A stretch of 36,696 bases of DNA from positions 1 to 36,696 of the forward strand of contig CAZQKE010000132.1 in the NCBI GenBank assembly GCA_964593865.1. The letters run 5' to 3'. The notes beneath the pieces were generated by a model, which was given only the letters and a program-made list of their open reading frames with translations, did not search any database and was not told where the DNA came from. The stretch is from an uncultured Anaerolineaceae bacterium (lineage in GTDB: Bacteria; Chloroflexota; Anaerolineae; JAAYZQ01). The position numbers and the translations under genes were made by a program. Below, piece after piece: positions 1,768 through 33,456 of this stretch; the first letter of the stretch is position 1; each line of letters starts with the position of its first letter.

Positions 1768-4191
1768 CTACTGCGCCGGGAGGACATAGACGTTGACGCT
1801 CAGGGGTGGGACCGGCAGCCCGGCGGTCGGGTCCTCCACCGTGTCCTGCCGGATGCGCACCTGGGGCGGTTGGCCCGGCTCGTTGTAGGCCCACGGCGGC
1901 GCGGAAACGTACCACCACTGCCCCCCGCCTCCCCAGGCGGCGTTTTGCAGGCTCAGGTCCAGGCGGTAGGACTGTTCCGTGGGGTTGACGACGGCCACCG
2001 TCAGGGCCGTTTGGTCCTCCGTCCAGGCGGCGGCGACATCCAACGGGTCGGTCGCGCCGTTCACCGTCAGGGGCAGCGTGCCAAAGTGACGGCGGTACAG
2101 CTCCCAGGCCAGCCCCGTGGCTTCGATGGCCGCCGCCGTCTGCGTCGTCTTGACCTGGCCGTGGGTGTTGACGGCGTGGAAATTGACCATCTCGATCAGG
2201 TCGCTGTTGTCAAAAATGGCGTGCAAGCCCCGGGCAATGCCCAGCGCATCACGAAAGTAGTAGCGCGGCGCCGCCTCGCCATAGATTTCGGGCCGGTTGG
2301 CCCACACATAGTTCCACTCGTCCAGGGCCAGGCGGATGTCCTTGCCCTGCAATTCGGGCATCTCGGCCCGGTATTGGCGATGGGGCCGCACAAAGTTTTC
2401 CGTCTCCAGGGCGACGCTACGGCTGTGGTCCGCCACCTCCAGGGCGGAACCGGCGTAGACATGCTCGCTGATCAACGTCATGTAATCCCCGGCCTTGCGC
2501 AGCATCTCCTGGGACCAGGTTTCATCGGCCTCCGTGCCCGGTTCCTGAGCCGCGCCGACGGCGATCAAGCGCAGGCTGGGGTCCACGGCCCACATGGCCT
2601 GGGCGACCTTGTTTTGGAGGGGGATATATTCGGCCAGGTTGATAAAGAACCAGGCTTCGTTGCCCACACCCCAAAAGCGGACGCCGTAAGGTTCGGGGTG
2701 GCCGTTGGCCGCCCGCCGCTGGCCCATGGGCGTGTCGGCCCCGCCGTTGACATACTCGACCTCCTGGGCGGCCAGGGGCACATCGTTCTCATCCATGACG
2801 CTGACGGCAATGTACGCCTCTGCGCCGGTCAGTTGGCACAGGGTCAGAAACTCGTCCAGGCCGAAATCGTTGGATTCCACCTCCTCCGACCAGTAAGCGT
2901 TGTTGAGGATGGGCGGGCGTTTGTCCCGGTCGCCGATGGCCTGCCGCCAGTCATAGTGGTTCACAAAGGTTCCGCCCGGCCAGCGGTAGACGGTAAAGCC
3001 CAGTTCCTTGAGCAGGGCCAGCGTATCGGCGCGGATGCCTTGCACATTGTCGGCGGGCATCAGGGAGGGCGGGCCGATGAACAGGTTTCCCTGGCCGCGC
3101 CCCGCAATCTCCAACGCGCCGTTTTCCGTGTCCCCTCCGGCGGTCAGGCTGATGGGGATTTTGGCATATTCCTCGCCGATCTGCCCCAGGTCCAGAGTCT
3201 GGCGGTCGTCCGCGCCCGGCCCCCACACCAGGCTGACCTCGGCCTGCACCTTGCCCGTGGCGGCCAGGATGACATAACCGCTGTAAGACTGCCCGGCCCG
3301 CAGTCCCAGACGGCGCTGGACGATGCCCCGGGGCCGGACGCCGTCCACAAAGACGCGGGGGCTGTGTTGGCCCACGTAGGCGTGTTCCTCGTCCATCGTC
3401 ACCACCGTATCGGGCGCGTTGGCGAACCAGGGCGAAAGGAATTTTTCCAGGCCCCAGGGGAAATAGTAGTTGACCGGGTGGTAGAACTTGCGGTCGCGGA
3501 GCATCTCGGCCCAGATGCCGCCATAGATGCAGCGGCCCTGGTGCTCGATGAACGTGCCGTACACATAGGGCGAGATGGGCGAGCCGGTTTGGGCGGCGTC
3601 CACGCTGACCGAAACCGCCTGGGCCTGCGCCGCGTCCCAGGGCGGGACGGTCGCGCCCAGGGCGGAAGGGGGCGGCAGGATCAACGCGCCGCCTTCCTCC
3701 GGGATCAAAGCCGGTTCTTCGCCGGGCGGCGGACCCCCCGGCGGCGGCGCGCCCTCTTCGGGCAGGGGCTGTTCGCCTACCTGAATGCCGACGGTGCGCT
3801 CCTCCAGGCGGTCGCCCAGGTCCACCCACAGGCGGTAAAAGGTGGATTCCGCAGGGCAGACCTGCTTCTGGCCCTCGGCGTCCACCCTTTCGTCCCCCAG
3901 CCCCACCTCAAAGAACTGGCCGGAGACGCGCCAGCGCAGGGTGACGCATTCGCCCGGCTGGATGCGGCTGCTGCTGGCCTCAAAACGGACCTGCACGCCG
4001 CCTTCCTCCTCCCCGGCGGGGGGAGCAGGGGCTGCCGTCGCCTCGGCGGGGGGAGCGGTGGGGGGCGGGGCCGCCGTCGTCGGGGCGGGGGCCGCCGCCT
4101 GGGGCGGCTCGGTCGGCGGCGGGGCCGCCGTGGGCGCCGCCGGAGCGCAAGCGGCCAGCAACAAAATTAGCAGTAGCGCGAGACGTTTCAT
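1768..4191 (-). CDS. GH51-family alpha-L-arabinofuranosidase. It is a lipoprotein with an N-terminal small domain and a Pro/Ala-rich linker.
   Basis: The ATG at 4189-4191 (rc) is preceded by AAAGGAGGAGG. The signal peptide carries the lipobox L-A-A-C. GH51 hallmarks are FIEHQGRCIYGGIW, GGTFVNHYDWRQAIG and the catalytic GNE motif (WGVGNEAWFF). The track ORF extends 11 codons further upstream. Confidence 0.85.
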   Translation of the reverse strand: MKRLALLLILLLAACAPAAPTAAPPPTEPPQAAAPAPTTAAPPPTAPPAEATAAPAPPAGEEEGGVQVRFEASSSRIQPGECVTLRWRVSGQFFEVGLGDERVDAEGQKQVCPAESTFYRLWVDLGDRLEERTVGIQVGEQPLPEEGAPPPGGPPPGEEPALIPEEGGALILPPPSALGATVPPWDAAQAQAVSVSVDAAQTGSPISPYVYGTFIEHQGRCIYGGIWAEMLRDRKFYHPVNYYFPWGLEKFLSPWFANAPDTVVTMDEEHAYVGQHSPRVFVDGVRPRGIVQRRLGLRAGQSYSGYVILAATGKVQAEVSLVWGPGADDRQTLDLGQIGEEYAKIPISLTAGGDTENGALEIAGRGQGNLFIGPPSLMPADNVQGIRADTLALLKELGFTVYRWPGGTFVNHYDWRQAIGDRDKRPPILNNAYWSEEVESNDFGLDEFLTLCQLTGAEAYIAVSVMDENDVPLAAQEVEYVNGGADTPMGQRRAANGHPEPYGVRFWGVGNEAWFFINLAEYIPLQNKVAQAMWAVDPSLRLIAVGAAQEPGTEADETWSQEMLRKAGDYMTLISEHVYAGSALEVADHSRSVALETENFVRPHRQYRAEMPELQGKDIRLALDEWNYVWANRPEIYGEAAPRYYFRDALGIARGLHAIFDNSDLIEMVNFHAVNTHGQVKTTQTAAAIEATGLAWELYRRHFGTLPLTVNGATDPLDVAAAWTEDQTALTVAVVNPTEQSYRLDLSLQNAAWGGGGQWWYVSAPPWAYNEPGQPPQVRIRQDTVEDPTAGLPVPPLSVNVYVLPAQ

Positions 4192-4227
4192 TTGACACCT
4201 CCTCCTTTTTCGTGTATCATTCAAGAC

Positions 4228-5604: not shown

Positions 5605-8061
5605 TCAGTCAACCGGCTCCGACCTCCGACGCCGGATCAATGCGGCCAGGGCCAACGGCAGGGCCGCCGCGCCGCCGCAGAGTCCACCCTTTGACGGCTC
5701 TGCCGGGGGCGTGGGAGCCGCCGGTTCGCCGGTCGGCGCGGCCGGCCGGGTTGGGGCAGGGGCTTCCGGTTGGCCCGGCGGTTCCCCCAGGCGAAAGGCC
5801 CCGCCCCCCTCGGAGGCCATGTAGAGCACCCGGCCATCGGTGGAAAGGGCCAGGTCGCGCACGTTGCGGGTGAGCAGGCCGTCGTTCAGCTCCTGCCAGG
5901 TCGCCCCTCCGTCGGTGGAAAAGTAGATGCCGCTCTCCGCAGCCCCGGCATAGAGCACCTGGGGGTCGGTGGGGTCCACGACGATGGCCTTGACCGAGAC
6001 CTCCGGCGGCATCCCCGACGAAGCAGGCCGCCAGGTCCGCCCGCCGTCGTCGCTGATGGCCGCGCCGCCCCGCACGAAACCGATGTAGAGCCGCTCCCGG
6101 TTCGTCGGGTCCACGGCCAGGGCCAGGGGGGCCGTGCGCGGCATATCCGGGTCGGGGGGCGGCGGCATTCCCTGGGTGGCGTCGTCGTTGACCATCTCCC
6201 ACGTTTCCCCGCCGTCGTCGGAGCGGTAGACGCGGGCGGGGGCCACCGTGGCATAGACGCGCCGACCGTCGGCGGCAAAGGCCAGGTTCAGCACCTGTTG
6301 CCCGTCCAGGCCGGAGGGCGTCCAGGTCTGGCCGCCGTCGCGGGAAAGGATGATGCCGCCGCCCGGTTCCTCGCAGCCTTCGCCTTTGGTCTGGCAAGCG
6401 CCGTTCCCCACACCGGCCAGGACCAGGCCCCGTTCGGTGGGGGAGAAGCGGAAGCGGGTGGCCATGCCCTGCAGTCCCTTGTCCATCAGCTCATGGCCCA
6501 CGTCGCGCCAGGTGTGGCCGCCGTCGGTGCTCAGCTTGGGCAGCGGTCCCGCGTCGCCCACGCTGGCCAGGATATGTTGTGCGTCCCACGGGTCCACGGC
6601 GATGGCCAACCCTTCCAGGGCGCGGGCCGGGCCGTAGCTCAACCCCTCCCAGGTTTGGCCGCCGTCGCTGCTGGCAAAGAGGCCGCTGCGGGCGGTGGCA
6701 TAGACGCGGGCCGGATCGTCCCGCGCCACGGCGATCTGGAACATCAACGCGCCGGAATAGCCCCGGCTGGCCACCTGCCAGGTGCGGCCCCCATCCTCGC
6801 TGAGAAAGTTGCCGCCGCCGTAGGCGTTGACGAACACCCGATCGGCGTTGCGGGGATCGCATTGCAGGTCAATGGGGAACCCGGCCACCACCCCCGGCGG
6901 CCCCCACATCTCCTCCCCCACCTGGACAACCTGGCCTTCGCCGACGCCGGCCTGCAACCGCCAGGTTTGGCCCGCGTCGTCGCTGCGGTAGAAGCTATAC
7001 AAAGAGGCGGCGTAGGCCACATTCGGGTCCCCCTCGCAGATTTCAACCGCGCTGCCGTTGGGCAGATCAAGCACCCGCTGCCAGGTATCGCCGCCGTCCT
7101 CGGTGCGGTAGACGGCGCCGAGGGGATGGCCCAGGACGTACATGTAGGGATCGTTGCCCGCGGCGGCCAGGAGAATGTTCGGGTTGGTGGGGTGCATGTA
7201 GAGGCTGCCGAAGTAGAGCTCATCGGGGCGGAAGCCGTTTTCCACCCCCAGCACCTCCCAGGTCTGGCCGCCGTCATGGCTGCGGAGGATGCCCACGCCG
7301 CCCGGATCGGGGGCCTCGGGATCGCCGTTGGCCGCCACCCGGTCAAAAATGCCGGTGGAGACGTAGAGCAGGTTGTGATCCTGGGGGTGAATCCAGATGT
7401 AGCGGGCCAGATTGTCGCCGTACCAGATGCGCTCCCAGTGTTGGCCGCCGTCGGTCGTCTTGTAGACGATGCCCTTGACCGTGTCCACCCCCTGAAGGCT
7501 GGGCAAGGGTGAGCCGTTCCACTCCCAGCTGGATACCTCCCCGGCCAGGTAGACCACGTCCGAGTTGCCCGGTTCGACGGTCAGGCCCCGGATGGTAGGG
7601 CCGCGTTCCCGGATGCCGTTGTCCATCCGCACCCAGGTCGCGCCGCCGTCGTCGCTGCGATAGACGCTGCGCGAATACTGGGTTCCGATCCACACCCGGT
7701 CGGGGTTGTTGGGGTCAATGGTTAGGCTAAAGACGGGGATGCCGTCGCCGGAAGGGCCGATGCGGGTGATGATGCCGGAGTTGCTGAGGAACCAGCTCTG
7801 CCCGCCGTCGGTGGATTTGAACACCCCGGCCCAGGCGTCGGTGACGAACATCACATCGGGGTTGTCGGGCCGCATACGGACATCATAGCCCAGCCCGCCC
7901 AGCGGCCCGCCCAGGTACACCCAGGGGGAGGATTGATAGGCCGGAGGTGGTTCGCCTGCTTCCCGCAGGCCGCTACCTTGCGCTCCTACGCCCCCCAAGG
8001 ACAACAAGACCGATGCCAACGTGACGATGCCGACCAGTGAGATGATTCTTTTACCGTCCAT
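5605..8061 (-). CDS. Secreted BNR/Asp-box repeat protein with about 13 SxDxGxTW motifs, consistent with two beta-propellers of the GH74/sortilin-like type. It ends in a GlyGly-CTERM-like tail.
   Basis: The ATG at 8059-8061 (rc) has an AGGAGC RBS. The signal peptide is MDGKRIISLVGIVTLASVLLSL. Repeated Asp-boxes include STDGGQSW, SDDGGATW, TTDGGQHW and SHDGGQTW. The C-terminus is KGGLCGGAAALPLALAALIRRRRSEPVD. The track ORF runs 85 codons further upstream into the repeat array and is not believed. Confidence 0.8.
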   Translation of the reverse strand: MDGKRIISLVGIVTLASVLLSLGGVGAQGSGLREAGEPPPAYQSSPWVYLGGPLGGLGYDVRMRPDNPDVMFVTDAWAGVFKSTDGGQSWFLSNSGIITRIGPSGDGIPVFSLTIDPNNPDRVWIGTQYSRSVYRSDDGGATWVRMDNGIRERGPTIRGLTVEPGNSDVVYLAGEVSSWEWNGSPLPSLQGVDTVKGIVYKTTDGGQHWERIWYGDNLARYIWIHPQDHNLLYVSTGIFDRVAANGDPEAPDPGGVGILRSHDGGQTWEVLGVENGFRPDELYFGSLYMHPTNPNILLAAAGNDPYMYVLGHPLGAVYRTEDGGDTWQRVLDLPNGSAVEICEGDPNVAYAASLYSFYRSDDAGQTWRLQAGVGEGQVVQVGEEMWGPPGVVAGFPIDLQCDPRNADRVFVNAYGGGNFLSEDGGRTWQVASRGYSGALMFQIAVARDDPARVYATARSGLFASSDGGQTWEGLSYGPARALEGLAIAVDPWDAQHILASVGDAGPLPKLSTDGGHTWRDVGHELMDKGLQGMATRFRFSPTERGLVLAGVGNGACQTKGEGCEEPGGGIILSRDGGQTWTPSGLDGQQVLNLAFAADGRRVYATVAPARVYRSDDGGETWEMVNDDATQGMPPPPDPDMPRTAPLALAVDPTNRERLYIGFVRGGAAISDDGGRTWRPASSGMPPEVSVKAIVVDPTDPQVLYAGAAESGIYFSTDGGATWQELNDGLLTRNVRDLALSTDGRVLYMASEGGGAFRLGEPPGQPEAPAPTRPAAPTGEPAAPTPPAEPSKGGLCGGAAALPLALAALIRRRRSEPVD

Positions 8062-8100
8062 ATTTGCTCCTAACATTCCCGGTCCCACCGCCGGGCCGTG

Positions 8101-8749
8101 CAGCGGGATTTTCATCCCCGCTGGTGAACCGAGAATACGCGGTTGAGACCGCCCCTGGCGGGCCGTTGGCCGACCGCCCGCCTGTGCGTGCGCGCCTGCC
8201 ATGCAGGCGGAAGCGTCCGCGTAGGCGGACGCCCGGCCGCAGGCCCGAAAGGAGCGACTTGAGTCGCCACTCGCACCCTCCCGCAGGCTGGGCGGCGGAT
8301 GCCCACAGCAGCGCATGGCAACGGCAAGCGGGACCTGTCCGGGCCACGGCTTACAAGCCTGCGGGAGGGTTCCCGCGCGGGATTTTCATCCCCGCTGGTG
8401 AGCCGAGAATACGCGGTTGAAACCGCCCCTGGCGGGCCGTTGGCCGACCGCCCGCCTGTGCGTGCGCGCCTGCCATGCAGGCGGAAGCGTCCGCGTAGGC
8501 GGACGCCCGGCCGCAGGCCCAAAAGGAGCGACTTGAGTCGCCACTCGCACCCTCCCGCAGGCCGGGCGGCGGATGCCCACAGCGGCGCATGGCAACGGCA
8601 AGCGGGACCTGTCCGGGCCACGGCTCACAAGCCTGCGGGAGGGTTCCCGCGCGGGATTTTCATCCCCGGTGGTGGGCCGAGAATACGCGGTTGAAACCGC
8701 CCCTGGTGGGCCGTTGGCCGACCGCCCGCACAGGCGGGCGGTCGGCCCA
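8101..8749. repeat. Tandem array of a ~277-nt structured element, about 2.3 copies: a 3' fragment, then two full units, then a diverged partial.
   Basis: The unit runs from GGTTGAAACCGCCCCTGGCGGG to GGGATTTTCATCCCCGCTGGTGAGCCGAGAATACGC. The two full units start at 8139 and 8416 and differ at about 6 positions, roughly 98 % identity. Internal hairpins include GCGTCCGC-GTAG-GCGGACGC, GCGACT-TGA-GTCGC, GCCTGC-CATG-CAGGC, and the 13-bp inverted repeat CCCTCCCGCAGGC-N55-GCCTGCGGGAGGG. Confidence 0.85.
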
Positions 8750-8775
8750 GGAGTCACGGCTTTCGCTGTCGCGCC

Positions 8776-8830
8776 GGTAGCGCAAGTTTCCAACTTGCGA
8801 GACCGCAAGCCGGAGGCTTGCGCAACGGCG
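8776..8830 (-). terminator. Tandem hairpins downstream of the small secreted-protein gene; a possible terminator, although no U-tract follows.
   Basis: The stems are CGCAAGTT-TCC-AACTTGCG (8 bp) and GCAAGCC-GGA-GGCTTGC (7 bp). They lie immediately 3' of the stop at 8874 in minus-strand sense. No uridine run follows either stem. Confidence 0.25.
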
Positions 8831-8873
8831 CAGGAAAACGCCCGCCCCCGGTCCAGGAGTCGCCGCCTCCGGG

Positions 8874-9158
8874 CTAGTGACTGCGCAGCACCAGGGGCAA
8901 ATAGACCCGCCACATCGGAGTCACGCCGCTGCCGCACCAAAAACCGCCGCACAGGCTGTGCCCGCTGCTAACGGTCTCGCCGGTCAACGGTTGACCGATG
9001 CTCCCCATCAGCAGGTGGTTCGCGTCGGCCGCCGAGCCACCGCCCCCGGCCACCACATGCCAGGAAAGGTCATAGTTGGCCGAAACTTGGGCCAGCACCG
9101 GCGCGACCACCGCCAGGAGCAGGCAGAGGGACAGGGCCGGAATGAGTTTGTCCTTCAT
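8874..9158 (-). CDS. Small secreted Gly/Cys-rich protein (94 aa) with the conserved C-terminal motif YLPLVLRSH; the B1 member of the duplicated cassette.
   Basis: The ATG at 9158 is preceded by GAGGAGGG. It lies 12 nt downstream of the upstream gene's stop. The signal peptide is MKDKLIPALSLCLLLAVVAPVLA. A CGGFWCG motif is present. The protein is paralogous to the one at 12431..12709. Confidence 0.6.
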   Translation of the reverse strand: MKDKLIPALSLCLLLAVVAPVLAQVSANYDLSWHVVAGGGGSAADANHLLMGSIGQPLTGETVSSGHSLCGGFWCGSGVTPMWRVYLPLVLRSH

Positions 9159-9170
9159 GTCATCCCTCCT

Positions 9171-11177
9171 CTACCGCTTGCTGACGGTGTTATCGTTGTT
9201 GTTGCTGATCCACATGTTGGCCCCGTCGAAGGCGATGTACAAGGGCCGGTCACCGACGGATACGGTGGCGACCGGTCCAAAGTCTGCGACGCGGACGATG
9301 CTCACCGTATCGTCATACTCGTTCACCACCCACATATTGGCTCCGTCAAAAGCCAGGGCCGTCGGCCCACTGCCGATGACGGGCGGCTGGAGCGTTTTGA
9401 CCAGTGCGCCGTCGCTGGCCCGGAAGACGCTGACCGTACCGCCGTCCAGGTTGGCAACCCACATGTTGGCGCCGTCAAAGGCGATGGCCGTCGGCCCGAC
9501 ACCGGCGGTGAGCGTCATCACGTGTGTCCCGTCGTTGGCGCGGATGACGCTGACCGTGCCGACCGAGTAATTCGTGATCCACATGTTGACCCCGTCAAAG
9601 GCGATGCCGCGCGGCCCTACGTCAAGGGTGGGCGTCATCACATGTGTCCCGTCGCTGGCGCGGATGACGCTTACATTTTTGCTGCCGTTGTTTACCACCC
9701 ACATATTGGCTCCGTCGAAGGCGAGGCGGAAGGGGATCGTGCCGACGGTGGGTGTCATCACATGGCTGCAATCGCTGGCCCGCAACACGCTGACAGTATT
9801 GTTGTCCCTGTTTGTGACCCACATGTTAACTCCGTCGAAGGCGATGGTATCGGGGTTGAGGCCGACGGTGCAGGTCATCACCCGCTCGCCGGTGCTGGCC
9901 CGCAGCACGGTGACGGAATCGGGGCCATAGTTTGCCACCCATATATTGGCTCCATCAAAGGCAATGCCGCTTGGCTGCTGGCCGGTGGGGAAACTCAGGT
10001 CGGTGGCGATGGCCGGATACCACTTGAGCAGGGCGATCTGTTGCAGATTCGGCCCCTGGATGAGGGAGGGACCGAGCGTTGCCAGGGCAAACCCATCCCC
10101 ACTGGAAGCTCCCAAGCCGACGCCGTGGGTGCTGGTGAAGTAGCCTCCCACACCGTTCCCCCGGTTTTCACCGATGACGGCGGCGTAGCTCTCCCGAGAG
10201 TTGGCGTGGACCCCTGCGCCGTGGGTGCTGGTAAAGTAACCGGCCGTGCTGCTGATGCTCATGCCGTGGACGCCGACGTCGTTGGTGCTGAAACCCAGGA
10301 CGCCAAAGCCATCTGCGCTTTCGCCCAGCACTCCAACGACCGGGCCGTGCCCCTTGACACCGATCTCGCTACCGCTGCTCCCGATGATGCCGATGTCTTG
10401 GGTGCTTGTAAAGAAACCGGCCACACCTTTGCTCAAGCCGTAAACGCCGTAGCCTGTATCGCTGGCTCCTTGCAGGCCCGGTCCTGCTGCATAGTTCTCG
10501 CCCCAGATGGCCGCCGAGGTATCGGAACCGGTGCCGCCGTAGACCGCCGAGGAGGTGTTGCTGCCGAATTCACCGCCGAACCCGTCCTGGCTCGTCGCCA
10601 GGATGCCGGCTCCGCCCGTGCTCCAGGCGTGGACCGCTGCCCGGTCGCCGTTGGCGTACAGACCGACGGCACCGCTGCCTTTGTTGATGGCATACAGTAC
10701 GGCGGTGTTCTCGTTGCCGGCAAGCCCGCCGCTGATGACCGCTCCCGGCCGCAGCGAGAGAGCGTAGGGAACGGGGAACAGCGGCTGGCGGGGTGTCATC
10801 TCTGCCTCTCCCTGGAGCTGCACCCCCAGCCACAACGCCCGCCCGTCAACCAGGCCGGGGTCCACGCCGTCCAGATAGGCGGTGAAAAAGCCTTCCTCTA
10901 CGGATACGCTGATCGCCTGCGACCACACCGCCGCGCCGCCGGGCGAATCGTACAGACGGAAGGTGATCGTCCGGACGCCGTTGACCGGGTCGCCGTTGCT
11001 ATCCAACAAGCGGCCCTGGTAGGAAATGGTCCCGGAAACGACGTTGCCAACCGCCGCCGATGAGGCCGTCGGGCCGGTCACACCCGGCCCGGCCTGAACG
11101 CCGCCGACGATCAGCAACAGGACGGCCAATGCCAGGGCAAATACGATGCCGACAGAGATTGCTTGCTTTTTGTCCAT
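9171..11177 (-). CDS. N-terminally anchored surface protein (668 aa); the A1 member of the duplicated cassette. It carries a shared N-terminal module, a Gly-rich repeat region and a C-terminal beta-propeller of about 8 blades of the YVTN type.
   Basis: The ATG at 11177 is preceded by AAGGAGG. The track ORF extends 72 codons into the repeat element and is not believed. The N-terminal transmembrane anchor is ISVGIVFALALAVLLLIVGGV. The shared module runs from YQGRLLDSNGDPVNG to PRQPL. Repeats of GVxGxS and GYFTS types follow. There are 8 repeats of about 42 aa of the form AFDGANMWVxN..TVSVxRASDG.HVMT. Confidence 0.8.
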   Translation of the reverse strand: MDKKQAISVGIVFALALAVLLLIVGGVQAGPGVTGPTASSAAVGNVVSGTISYQGRLLDSNGDPVNGVRTITFRLYDSPGGAAVWSQAISVSVEEGFFTAYLDGVDPGLVDGRALWLGVQLQGEAEMTPRQPLFPVPYALSLRPGAVISGGLAGNENTAVLYAINKGSGAVGLYANGDRAAVHAWSTGGAGILATSQDGFGGEFGSNTSSAVYGGTGSDTSAAIWGENYAAGPGLQGASDTGYGVYGLSKGVAGFFTSTQDIGIIGSSGSEIGVKGHGPVVGVLGESADGFGVLGFSTNDVGVHGMSISSTAGYFTSTHGAGVHANSRESYAAVIGENRGNGVGGYFTSTHGVGLGASSGDGFALATLGPSLIQGPNLQQIALLKWYPAIATDLSFPTGQQPSGIAFDGANIWVANYGPDSVTVLRASTGERVMTCTVGLNPDTIAFDGVNMWVTNRDNNTVSVLRASDCSHVMTPTVGTIPFRLAFDGANMWVVNNGSKNVSVIRASDGTHVMTPTLDVGPRGIAFDGVNMWITNYSVGTVSVIRANDGTHVMTLTAGVGPTAIAFDGANMWVANLDGGTVSVFRASDGALVKTLQPPVIGSGPTALAFDGANMWVVNEYDDTVSIVRVADFGPVATVSVGDRPLYIAFDGANMWISNNNDNTVSKR
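9190..9990. repeat. Intragenic tandem DNA repeats with a period of about 126 nt, encoding the YVTN blades.
   Basis: Eight recurring copies of CACATGTTGGC(N)CCGTC(A/G)AAGGCGATG are seen, roughly 126 nt apart. They correspond to the AFDGANMWV blade motif read on the minus strand. Confidence 0.7.
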
Positions 11178-11217
11178 TTTCTTCCTCCTTTTCACACTTT
11201 TTGCTTCTTTGAAAACA

Positions 11218-11385
11218 GCGGTTGAAACCGCCCCTGGCGGGCCGTTGGCCGACCGCCCGCCTACGCGGGCGGAAGCGGGAGCGTCCGCGTAGGCGGACGC
11301 CCGGCCACAGGCCCAAAAGGAGCGACTTGAGTCGCCACCGTCTCCGGCGCGAGCAGCCGGGATTTTCATCCCCGGTGGTGAGCCG
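11218..11385. repeat. Shortened modular copy of the ~277-nt structured element.
   Basis: It shares GCGGTTGAAACCGCCCCTGGCGGGCCGTTGGCCGACCGCCCGC, GCGTCCGCGTAGGCGGACGCCCGGCC, CAGGCCCAAAAGGAGCGACTTGAGTCGCCAC and the terminal GGGATTTTCATCCCCGGTGGTGAGCCG with the array at 8101-8749. It lacks the ~125-nt module containing the 13-bp inverted repeat. It fills the spacer between the hydrolase stop at 11390 and the surface-protein start at 11177. Confidence 0.8.
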
Positions 11386-32712: not shown

Positions 32713-32741
32713 TAGACAAAATCTGTCAGATGGGGTACAAT
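32713..32741 (+). promoter_or_regulatory. Putative promoter with a roughly 100-nt structured leader for the uracil-DNA glycosylase gene.
   Basis: The sequence reads TAGACA-17 nt-TACAAT, with a TG at -15/-14. The leader downstream contains nested stems in GGCGGCCCACAGGGTGGGGTTCCCACCGCC. Confidence 0.35.
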
Positions 32742-32850
32742 TCGGGTCGCCTCTTTTGGGCCTGCGGTCAACCTACCGCGCAGGTGAACGGTTGGCGGCC
32801 CACAGGGTGGGGTTCCCACCGCCATTTCGGATAGGAAGGGGGAGAAAGAA

Positions 32851-33456
32851 TTGTCTGAACTGACGGACCTTTACCAGGAGATTCGGCAATGCCAAAAATG
32901 TATCCTCGGCCAGGGGCGTACCAACGCCGTGCCCGGTGAAGGGCCGGAGGATGCCGACATTATGTTTATCGGCGAGGCTCCGGGCTTCCATGAGGATCGC
33001 TTGGGGCGGCCTTTTGTCGGTGCAGCGGGCAAATACTTGGACGAGTTGCTGGCAAAGATCGGAATCCGGCGTGAGGAGGTCTACATCGCCAACGTGGTCA
33101 AGTGCCGACCACCCGGCAACCGCGACCCCCGCCCGGAGGAGATTGAAGCCTGCCGTCCGTATCTTGACAAGCAGATAGAGATCATCCGCCCCCGCATCAT
33201 CGTCACCCTGGGGCGATTCTCCATGCAGCGGTACTTTCCCGGCGCGTCCATCTCGCGCATCCACGGCCGGCCCAAGCGGGTGGGCGGCGTGATCTACTAT
33301 CCCATGTTCCACCCGGCGGCGGCTTTGCACCAACCCCGCTGGCGGAGCTTGGTTGAAGAAGACATCATGCGCATCCCCGAACTGCTATCCAAGCTGGACG
33401 AGATCGAAGAGGAGGAGCCGGAGATCCCCCAAGCCCGGCAACTGAGCCTGTTCTGA
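32851..33456 (+). CDS. Family-4 (thermostable-type) uracil-DNA glycosylase.
   Basis: A TTG start at 32851 is preceded by AAGGGGGAG. A Cys-x2-Cys motif for an Fe-S cluster is present (QCQKC). The family signatures are FIGEAPG (motif A) and HPAAALH (motif B). Confidence 0.85.
   Translation: MSELTDLYQEIRQCQKCILGQGRTNAVPGEGPEDADIMFIGEAPGFHEDRLGRPFVGAAGKYLDELLAKIGIRREEVYIANVVKCRPPGNRDPRPEEIEACRPYLDKQIEIIRPRIIVTLGRFSMQRYFPGASISRIHGRPKRVGGVIYYPMFHPAAALHQPRWRSLVEEDIMRIPELLSKLDEIEEEEPEIPQARQLSLF

Follow-up and report, generated by a model that had tools for sequence, protein, structure and literature searches.

REPINs consist of two repetitive extragenic palindromes (REPs) in inverted orientation, and REPIN/RAYT systems have been studied mostly in Proteobacteria. 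An attenuating or stabilising effect on transcripts is a known property of REP-class repeats. The BIME-2 elements of E. coli are reportedly mosaics of alternating inverted REPs and linker modules, which are amplified in tandem to variable number and transcribed within operons, where they are said to stabilise the upstream mRNA and attenuate read-through. The mycobacterial MIRU-VNTR loci are said to be intergenic tandem repeats inside operons, co-oriented with the genes, with strain-variable copy number and with repeat ends that interact with flanking translation signals; MIRUs reportedly measure 46-101 bp and act through small overlapping ORFs. Pseudomonas fluorescens SBW25 carries REPINs, ordered REPIN clusters and RAYT transposases (Bertels and Rainey, 2011, PMC3116915), and its ordered tandem clusters include flanking sequence and exceed 700 bp (PMC3116915). 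The superfamily of GTAG-tagged REPs includes GTAG-23 of Thermomicrobium roseum, a member of the Chloroflexi (Di Nocera et al., 2013, PMC3733652), and the GTAG-REPs of the Chloroflexi are clustered and tandemly reiterated together with flanking DNA (PMC3733652). Both ordered tandem REPIN clusters and GTAG-REPs in the Chloroflexi have been described previously.

The locus analysed here lies in a stretch of 36,696 nucleotides (the window) from an uncultured Anaerolineaceae bacterium, in which an array of hairpin-rich repeats occurs upstream of a gene for a secreted BNR-repeat protein. The array is very probably an ordered tandem cluster of a dispersed REPIN-type family in uncultured Anaerolineae (Chloroflexota). 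The features concerned are as follows.

5605-8061, minus strand: secreted BNR/sortilin-Vps10 repeat protein of 818 aa, the gene downstream of the array.
8062-8102, minus strand: gap between the array and the BNR start, with the Shine-Dalgarno sequence AGGAG 6 nt 5' of the ATG.
8103-8376, minus strand: tandem unit 1 of 274 nt, with the REPIN core at 8133-8270, the CCCTCCC/GGGAGGG hairpin at 8270-8376 and the GGGAT-TTTC-ATCCC hairpin at 8105-8118.
8377-8650, minus strand: tandem unit 2 of 274 nt, 98 % identical to unit 1 and missing from contig L001.
8651 to about 8740-8750, minus strand: partial unit 3, equal to one REP half, from the repeat search.
8742-8873, minus strand: remaining part of the 812-nt intergenic region, whose modules also occur at other places.
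8874-9158, minus strand: small ORF of 94 aa with a signal peptide, the last gene ahead of the array, also called as a gene in contigs L001 and L002.
9171-11177, minus strand: beta-propeller-like secreted protein of 668 aa with 40-aa repeats, preceded by a single REPIN copy.
11211-11385, minus strand: this single long-form REPIN copy, from repeat search, folding and hairpin positions.
About 32733-32840, plus strand: degenerate relic of the element, sense-oriented and directly upstream of the gene for uracil-DNA glycosylase (UDG; TTG at 32851).

The original prediction had described tandem units of about 277 nt; the tandem array was recovered by Tandem Repeats Finder at 8103-8729 with a period of 274, 2.3 copies, 97 % matches, no indels and a score of 1191. 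A repeat search aligned 8103-8376 with 8377-8650 at 98 % identity and about 6 mismatches, the same figures as those predicted, and the partial third copy at 89-91 %. This identity of 97-98 % between units agrees with the view of a recent, modular, hairpin-built repeat, and every hairpin previously listed was found in its place. The GCGTCCGC-GTAG-GCGGACGC hairpin occurs at 8213, 8487, and 11281, that of GCGACTTGAGTCGC at 8254, 8528, and 11322, that of GCCTGCCATGCAGGC at 8194 and 8468, and that of GGGATTTTCATCCC at 8105, 8379, 8653, and 11359. The 13-nt arms, CCCTCCCGCAGGC at 8276 and 8550 and GCCTGCGGGAGGG at 8357 and 8631, are separated by 68 nt and not by the 55 nt first given. Partial unit 3 terminates in a perfect 14-bp hairpin, GGCCGACCGCCCGC-ACAG-GCGGGCGGTCGGCC, and the hairpin modules of 8742-8873 (for example, GCAAGTT-GGA-AACTTGC) recur beside REPINs in contigs L045, L046, L018, and L093. 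The 274-nt unit folds better than dinucleotide shuffles whichever strand is taken, with z = -4.4 for the minus strand, which is sense for the gene, and z = -2.9 for the plus strand; this good folding of both strands follows from the palindromic nature of the units. A CRISPR-like array was rejected, since the period is 274 nt and spacers are lacking, and a search of the window found no tRNA or tmRNA.

The single copy at 11211-11385 occupies the entire gap from the stop codon of a hydrolase gene (11390) to the start of the beta-propeller gene (11177). At 11218-11335 it reads CCGCCCGC-CTAC-GCGGGCGG, an 8-nt spacer and GCGTCCGC-GTAG-GCGGACGC, head to head and with mirrored outer hairpins, and its minimum-free-energy fold is one long hairpin or cruciform, so that two inverted REPs form one long hairpin, as in a REPIN. 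This copy had been placed at 11218-11385 and described as lacking one module of about 125 nt; it is indeed shorter than the tandem units, its extent being 11211-11385, and it lacks the CCCTCCC...GGGAGGG hairpin module of about 100 nt and the GCCTGC-CATG-GCAGGC insert. The relic at 32733-32840, overlooked in the original prediction, retains GTCGC-CTCTTTTGGGCCTGCGG and a compensated terminal hairpin, GGTGGG-GTTC-CCACC, followed by ATTTCGG..GGAAG. The window thus holds three element sites in 36.7 kb, all in sense orientation.

The basic REP unit measures about 60 nt and consists of three hairpins: one of 8 bp, G+C-rich and with GYAG as its loop, the mini-hairpin GGCC-NNN-GGCC, and one of 5-7 bp whose loop is TTCA or TTGA. 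Two such units placed head to head, 8-30 nt apart, make up a REPIN core of about 125 nt, to which accessory hairpin modules can be attached. Among the matches listed, 75 distinct units were recognized in which stems co-vary and loops are conserved. The co-varying long stems are GCGTCCGC/GCGGACGC, GCGTCGGC/GCCGACGC, CCGCCCGC/GCGGGCGG, and GCGTCCCT/AGGGACGC, and the short ones GCGAC/GTCGC, GCGGT/ACCGC, and CCGAA/TTCGG. GYAG, in the loop of the 8-bp hairpin, was kept in 75 of the 75 distinct units despite stem variation, in a search whose pattern demanded GTAG in one REP and left partner REPs and RAYT-flanking REPs unconstrained. The search placed no constraint on the terminal small hairpin; it was present in 38 of 76 true matches and in 3 of 42 chance matches among those listed.

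This architecture shares with the SBW25 REPINs the inverted REP pair that forms a hairpin and the flanking of a Y1 transposase gene by the same REPs (PMC3116915), although the REP is longer here (about 60 nt and three hairpins) and the host belongs to the Anaerolineae. With the GTAG-REPs the family shares G+C-rich GTAG/GYAG stem-loops, frequent tail-to-tail dimers, an association with GGSSCGG-type mini-palindromes and the phylum Chloroflexi (PMC3733652); GTAG-23 is likened by description, as its consensus appears only in a figure (PMC3733652). GYAG is located in the hairpin loop, at the junction of REP body and spacer in the tail-to-tail dimer, whereas classical REPs carry it unpaired, as a tag at the base of the stem. 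The E. coli BIME-2 elements are unrelated sequence families with much shorter units than the 195-274 nt found here, and MIRUs, unlike the present element, are not palindromic REP doublets and have no link to a Y1 transposase.

A degenerate 25-nt REP pattern matched more than 118 stretches in metagenomes, a lower bound, and at least 83 of the re-scanned matches carry the complementary 5' hairpin arm, which is absent from the pattern. Among the matches listed, about 30 contigs of one sample (Ga0256914) bear copies of the window type, at more than 30 unrelated sites, all of them intergenic, and many of these contigs terminate within the element, as is typical of a genome-wide repeat; related subfamilies are present in many other metagenomes. 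The element precedes genes for pyruvate kinase, thymidylate kinase, and UDG, among many others. A scan of representative genomes with a 21-mer of the REP detected a diverged real copy in an Oscillochloris MAG, upstream of CIRCE-groES, and one further match, a chance one in coding sequence. The REPs are therefore extragenic and multi-copy, with a count per genome extrapolated from metagenome contigs of related populations, just as SBW25 carries hundreds of extragenic copies (PMC3116915) and many are found here, counted from metagenome contigs. The original prediction had noted that dispersal over many unrelated loci in random orientation would make the element a generic REP or MITE; dozens of unrelated intergenic loci were found, and the orientation is not random, as copies are biased toward the sense strand directly upstream of start codons.

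Tandem arrays with a 195-nt unit were found in contigs L044, L046, L057, and L083, reaching 4-5 units in L044, L046, and L083, and L086 holds a less regular array of partial repeats. Contig L001 is 99.8-99.9 % identical to the window and differs from it by exactly one 274-nt unit (2.3 units in the window and 1.3 in L001). Tandem reiteration with linkers and in variable number is the pattern of ordered REPIN clusters and BIMEs; the one-unit difference could also result from collapse of the repeat in a short-read assembly. No orthologous empty site was found through the BNR homologues P0003, P0005, and P0008, because their loci are not syntenic.

The connection with a transposase comes from related metagenome and MAG loci, including Anaerolineales MAGs. 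In contig L119, positions 272-739 encode a 155-aa Y1_Tnp protein (Pfam, 90 bits), and this Y1 gene is bracketed by inverted REPs that have a 30-mer, GTCCGC-GYAG-GCGGACGCCCGGCCGCAGGCC, in common with the window. JGI gives homologues of this transposase the name RayT; NCBI lists them, in Anaerolineales MAGs, as IS200/IS605 family transposase. REPs or REPINs of the same architecture flank a Y1 gene at five loci (L119, L125, L126, L127/L128, and L129). No Y1 transposase gene occurs in the 36.7-kb window, and a cognate single-copy RAYT in the host genome may be extrapolated from the metagenome contigs of related populations. The Y1 genes of contigs L073 and L109 were rejected as partners, since they belong to ordinary IS605 tnpA-tnpB elements without REP flanks. 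In NCBIfam the transposase scores 77.9 bits with the IS200 model (cut-off 55) and 30.4 bits with REP_Tyr_transpos (cut-off 80), and differs from the SBW25 RAYTs in scoring as IS200-like and below the cut-off of NCBIfam's RAYT model.

These scores are one ground for an alternative, judged unlikely, in which the repeats are miniature derivatives (PATE- or MITE-like) of multi-copy IS200/IS605 elements, or MITEs of a DDE transposon with target-site duplication. Two such transposase genes stand in tandem in L125, GAGGAAG is present at both ends of the long 195-nt units and could be a target duplication, and one copy adjoins an IS-type integrase gene (L120). Against this, the Y1 genes have on their two sides inverted or quasi-palindromic copies of a single REP instead of distinct left and right ends; these Y1 genes lack TnpB, whereas the true tnpA-tnpB pairs lack REPs; and around the short copies neither terminal inverted repeats nor target duplications recur consistently. 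Contigs carrying transposase homologues are mostly short, as is expected when a transposase gene is bracketed by a high-copy repeat. A DDE transposase whose ends match the repeats was not found. Least credible is an assembly artefact, with a dispersed repeat mis-joined or over-expanded into a tandem arrangement. L001, a short-read assembly, is one unit shorter, the Logan contig L002 breaks within the repeat, and contigs often end in the element, but about 6 positions distinguish the units, two independent assemblies agree in having unique, collinear flanks and at least 1.3 units, and comparable arrays of up to 4-5 units exist in the independent contigs cited above.

The original prediction put the array forward as a candidate cis-regulatory leader RNA of the BNR gene and recognised in it no known ncRNA and no REP or MITE family. 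A dedicated structured 5' leader of this kind, riboswitch-like or attenuator-like and specific to the BNR gene, now appears very improbable. The array is indeed sense-oriented and immediately upstream, ending 41 nt from the ATG at 8061 on the minus strand (about 40 nt had been reported), and its sense strand folds strongly. No sigma-70-like promoter was detected by a promoter scan in this gap, as had been claimed, nor in the window array or the L044 array, which counts against the promoter borne by the repeat that had been offered as another possibility. Since no promoter could be detected in those 41 nt, transcription of the BNR gene probably passes through the array. The same element, however, stands at dozens of unrelated genes, its REPs flank Y1 genes, the number of units varies between contigs that are 99.9 % identical, and both strands fold well, as palindromes do. 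The nearest BNR homologues (85, 79, and 73 % identity) show no such hairpin in about 50 kb; since their loci are not syntenic, they indicate only that a leader is not conserved with the gene. The element is thus neither conserved upstream of the BNR homologues nor confined to that position, and its dispersal largely refutes a dedicated leader. Rfam gave no match at gathering thresholds in the whole window, in agreement with the earlier statement on known ncRNAs, and at E <= 10 both repeat regions yielded only sub-threshold chance matches, such as Moco-II (21 bits, cut-off 35), CRISPR-DR, and miRNA models. Dispersal and the Y1-gene flanks assign the element to the known REP/REPIN kind, contrary to what had been stated on repeat families.

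The terminal hairpin GGCGGU-UUCA-ACCGCU (-8.6 kcal/mol, followed by AUUUUC with a run of 4 U) does not fold above shuffles and is weakly terminator-like; a terminator scan marked it only where more T follow, and the units of the window array carry GUAUUCUC in its place. A coding role of the repeat was considered and rejected. The BNR reading frame is open up to an ATG at 8316. The length of the 195-nt repeat is divisible by 3, and that repeat contains AAGGATGAAAATC; the length of the 274-nt unit is not divisible by 3. The signal peptide and the Shine-Dalgarno sequence fit the ATG at 8061, which is also the start called in L001.

It is proposed that the REPIN family spreads as single-stranded DNA hairpins by means of a Y1 transposase acting in trans. 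The 274-nt unit, made of a REPIN and flanking modules, would have been amplified locally through unequal recombination or replication slippage, and such amplification would explain both why the units are 97-98 % identical and why near-identical strains differ by one unit. The array may be co-transcribed with the flanking genes, since it takes up the space between them and is followed by no detectable promoter. In the mRNA the hairpins would act generically, as do those of REPs and BIMEs, by serving as 3'-exonuclease barriers and partial terminators, and may uncouple expression of the upstream propeller and 94-aa genes from that of the BNR gene; they would not constitute a ligand- or signal-specific switch.

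The position of the copies relative to genes is a separate matter. A co-oriented ORF starts within 100 nt past 16-17 of about 24 assessable 3' ends, and within 30 nt past 11 of them, where GAGGAAG or GGAGG of the element takes the Shine-Dalgarno position. The conserved 3' tail (small hairpin-TATTTTC-GAGGAAG) is often found 5-15 nt ahead of the start codon, suggesting that it frequently supplies the ribosome-binding site of the next gene in this lineage. On the sense strand, derived G.U pairs outnumber A.C pairs by 22 to 10 (32 non-independent changes). The sense bias immediately upstream of start codons distinguishes these copies from SBW25 REPINs, and the ribosome-binding tail is not a feature of E. 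coli BIME-2. For the most part GTAG-REPs follow genes, in the space between ORFs that converge or run in one direction (PMC3733652), whereas many copies here abut the start of the next gene. It is conceivable, though rather doubtful, that the family acquired a conserved asymmetric 3' tail and occurs preferentially in sense before starts, as a portable intercistronic stabiliser or attenuator combined with a ribosome-binding cassette. A mobile repeat would then supply the ribosome-binding sites of unrelated genes by the dozen, homologues of pyruvate kinase and thymidylate kinase among them, and transcription of these genes would have to pass through the repeat. The tail might stand before starts because the transposase targets a Shine-Dalgarno-like sequence, and its position would be the opposite of the 3'-of-gene bias described for classical REPs.

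Recognition of the array as a REPIN cluster removes a false riboswitch or leader candidate from annotation. It also provides a signature for intergenic repeats in Anaerolineae MAGs, in which an 8-bp hairpin whose loop is GYAG is combined with a GGCC-NNN-GGCC mini-hairpin and a hairpin whose loop is TTCA; such repeats cause breaks in assemblies from short reads and lead to overcounting of "structured RNA". The variable-number tandem locus could serve for strain typing. REPIN/RAYT-type systems are hereby extended to an uncultured class of the Chloroflexota. The only aspect that may matter beyond annotation and this extension is the orientation bias together with the Shine-Dalgarno tail, which, if real, would mean that a selfish repeat is used as, or targets, translation-initiation regions.

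The repeat 5' of the BNR gene is a multi-copy intergenic palindromic doublet that is associated with Y1-type transposase genes in related genomes and that differs in tandem copy number. In the window (G+C content 62 %), Tandem Repeats Finder detected a single long-period array at 8103-8729, made up of 2.3 indel-free copies at a period of 274 with 97 % matches. Its two complete units, 8103-8376 and 8377-8650, share 98 % identity, and a partial third copy reaches about 8750, where it terminates in a perfect 14-bp hairpin. The original prediction of a tandem array is thus borne out, with the period corrected from about 277 to 274 nt; its quoted hairpins were all found, including the 13-nt arms CCCTCCCGCAGGC and GCCTGCGGGAGGG, which lie 68 nt apart rather than 55. 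The shorter second copy was also recovered (11211-11385), and a degenerate further copy, previously overlooked, occurs on the plus strand at about 32733-32840. On either strand the unit folds better than its shuffles (z = -4.4 and -2.9), as expected from its being composed of palindromes.

Genes around the array and the shorter copy
12373-11390, minus strand, alpha/beta hydrolase
11177-9171, minus strand, beta-propeller-like secreted protein, 668 aa
9158-8874, minus strand, secreted protein, 94 aa
8061-5605, minus strand, BNR/sortilin protein, 818 aa

The array is located in the 812-nt gap 5' of the BNR gene, and the hydrolase-propeller gap is occupied entirely by the single copy. A promoter scan found no sigma-70-like promoter in the 812-nt gap or the array, and the BNR gene is probably transcribed through the array, judging from this arrangement. 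Its reading frame continues without a stop as far as an ATG at 8316, so that an automatic gene caller could wrongly add 85 codons of array; long ORFs cross the repeat units (8112-8621 and 5605-8316, minus strand). The BNR C-terminus (5605-5700) consists of a Pro/Ala-rich linker followed by ...KGGLCGGAAALPLALAALIRRRRSEPVD, which looks like a sorting/anchor signal (Cys-Gly-Gly, hydrophobic helix, Arg cluster); the closest homologues carry instead an extra 3-keto-disaccharide hydrolase/GH16-type domain. The propeller-like product matches Pfam Lactonase weakly, and in its gene at least six 120-nt (40-aa) coding repeats of 60-80 % identity follow one another in tandem (9180-9986). The 94-aa protein, with no Pfam family, starts 12 nt after it. 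A G-rich repeat of period 39 nt (GGGGCNGCCGTCGCC...) at 4002-4135 lies near the 5' end of an arabinofuranosidase-like ORF (818 aa, 1768-4224, minus strand) and overlaps the start of a divergent AAA_14/DUF4143 ATPase gene.

In the core of the window element, two units face each other head to head across an 8-nt spacer and can fold as one long hairpin or cruciform, which corresponds to the definition of a REPIN, that is, two repetitive extragenic palindromes (REPs) in inverted orientation. The REP architecture was constant across 75 distinct units among the matches listed.

Architecture of the REP
Hairpin 1: 8 bp, G+C-rich, GYAG (GTAG or GCAG) loop
Mini-hairpin: 4-5 bp, GGCC-NNN-GGCC, GGCGC-GCA-GCGCC or AGCC-GGA-GGCT
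Linker: about 8 nt, between mini-hairpin and last hairpin
Last hairpin: 5-7 bp, TTCA, TTGA or CTCG loop

Subfamilies differ by compensated stem changes with unchanged loops. The last hairpin, not constrained by the search, was present in 38 of 76 true matches versus 3 of 42 chance matches among those listed.

The degenerate 25-nt REP pattern GTAGGCGGRCGNNCGGCCNNNGGCC matched more than 118 metagenome stretches, a lower bound. When the fetched loci were re-scanned, 83 of the matches listed carried the complementary 5' arm, which the pattern does not demand, and the other 45 were chance matches, mostly in coding sequence. Window-type copies occur on at least about 30 contigs of the single sample Ga0256914, all intergenic and many at contig ends, and the repeat is also where a Logan contig breaks off. 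Between the window and a near-identical syntenic contig (L001; 99.8-99.9 % identity over 18 kb), the difference amounts to precisely one 274-nt unit. Loci L044 (4-5 units), L046, L057 and L083 carry a 195-nt unit in tandem, and partial repeats form a less regular array at L086; removing 19 nt at the junction from this 195-nt unit and adding a hairpin module of about 100 nt gives the 274-nt unit of the window. Accessory modules (the CCCTCCC...GGGAGGG hairpin and the 8742-8873 hairpins) recur elsewhere. A search with a core 21-mer yielded one copy that is genuine though diverged; it lies in an Oscillochloris MAG and has the compensated hairpin GCGTCGGC-GTAG-GCCGACGC.

Several copies have distinctive neighbours. 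A second repeat family, a (GCAAAGG)n-rich stretch followed by ...CTTGGCGTCTTGGCGGTTCCAAGTTTCAAGATTTGAACCGCAAAGG, is common 5' of REPINs (L080, L055, L053, L025, L031, L012, L089, L044, L077, L018 and L035), so these intergenic mosaics hold at least two unrelated families. In the Oscillochloris MAG contig CAIRDL010000109 (L004, 1990-2420), a diverged REPIN adjoins a 22-nt repeat present in three tandem copies (GGGGCGTCATTGGCATGGTGAG) and precedes two CIRCE operators (TTAGCACTC-N9-GAGTGCTAA) and groES. At L120 (7986-8152), an IS-type integrase gene whose product ends in ...RLIRTIKEEE is directly followed by the start of a copy, and low-G+C sequence truncates the 3' side of this copy, which suggests insertion of another mobile element into the repeat.

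The proposal that the array is a dedicated structured leader of the BNR gene is not supported, in view of this dispersal and of the absence of the element from related loci. Homologues of the BNR protein are named as Anaerolineae, Anaerolineales or Chloroflexota MAG proteins, which places the host among the uncultured Anaerolineae. Across the roughly 50 kb covered by the loci of the three closest (85, 79 and 73 % identity), neither a GYAG-loop hairpin nor a BLAST match to the unit was found, and one of these genes is preceded by a short promoter-like region of its own. As these loci are non-syntenic, they constitute evidence for non-conservation, not for an empty insertion site. Rfam gave no match at gathering thresholds and chance-level matches only at E <= 10, which also argues against the leader, and no tRNA or tmRNA was found.

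The link to transposition comes from metagenome and MAG loci, no Y1 gene having been seen in the window. At L119, a 155-aa ORF (Pfam Y1_Tnp, 90 bits) lies between inverted window-type REPs sharing an identical 30-mer with the window. Its homologues, several from Anaerolineales MAGs, bear the JGI name 'REP element-mobilizing transposase RayT', and NCBIfam places the protein above the IS200 cut-off and below that of RAYT, the REP-associated Y1 transposases. REPs of the same architecture, or whole REPINs, bracket Y1 genes at four more loci (L125, L126, L127/L128 and L129); L073 and L109 are ordinary IS605 tnpA-tnpB pairs without these REPs. At L125 (2037-3247), two tandem Y1 genes (145 and 155 aa) each have REPs on both sides, with the distinct stem variant GCGTCCCT-GYAG-AGGGACGC. 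At L126 (319-2572; Anaerolineales MAG GCA_046753805.1), the REPIN-flanked Y1 gene is immediately 5' of cas6 and cas1, at a CRISPR-Cas locus edge.

Ordered REPIN clusters, the largest exceeding 700 bp, have been described adjoining RAYT genes (PMC3116915). Di Nocera et al. listed GTAG-REPs in Chloroflexi (Thermomicrobium roseum GTAG-23), reporting clustering, tandem reiteration including flanking DNA and associated GGSSCGG-type mini-palindromes (PMC3733652). The array therefore belongs to a known kind. Dispersal may proceed as single-stranded hairpin DNA with the transposase acting in trans, and the 274-nt unit would be amplified locally by unequal recombination or slippage.

Classical REPs show a reported bias to the 3' side of genes (PMC3733652), whereas copies of the Anaerolineae family tend to lie in sense orientation 5' of starts. 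All three window copies are sense-oriented, with both DNA strands represented. In gene-sense orientation the family ends in GGCGGTTTCAACCGC-TATTTTC-GAGGAAG. A co-oriented high-GC3 ORF starts within 100 nt beyond 16-17 of about 24 assessable outer ends, and within 30 nt in 11 cases, where GAGGAAG or GGAGG of the element occupies the Shine-Dalgarno (SD) position; pyruvate kinase and thymidylate kinase homologues are examples. G.T pairs in GTAG-REPs were taken by Di Nocera et al. to suggest RNA-level function (PMC3733652); here derived pairs on the sense strand were G.U in 22 cases versus A.C in 10, weak evidence given that these changes lack independence. The resemblance of the terminal hairpin to a terminator is only weak. 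The array would be co-transcribed with the flanking genes, its hairpins putatively exerting a generic influence on mRNA stability and read-through, and the element tail may provide a predicted ribosome-binding site at many loci. The sense-orientation bias and SD-bearing tail are possibly new, the sole such feature of the family.
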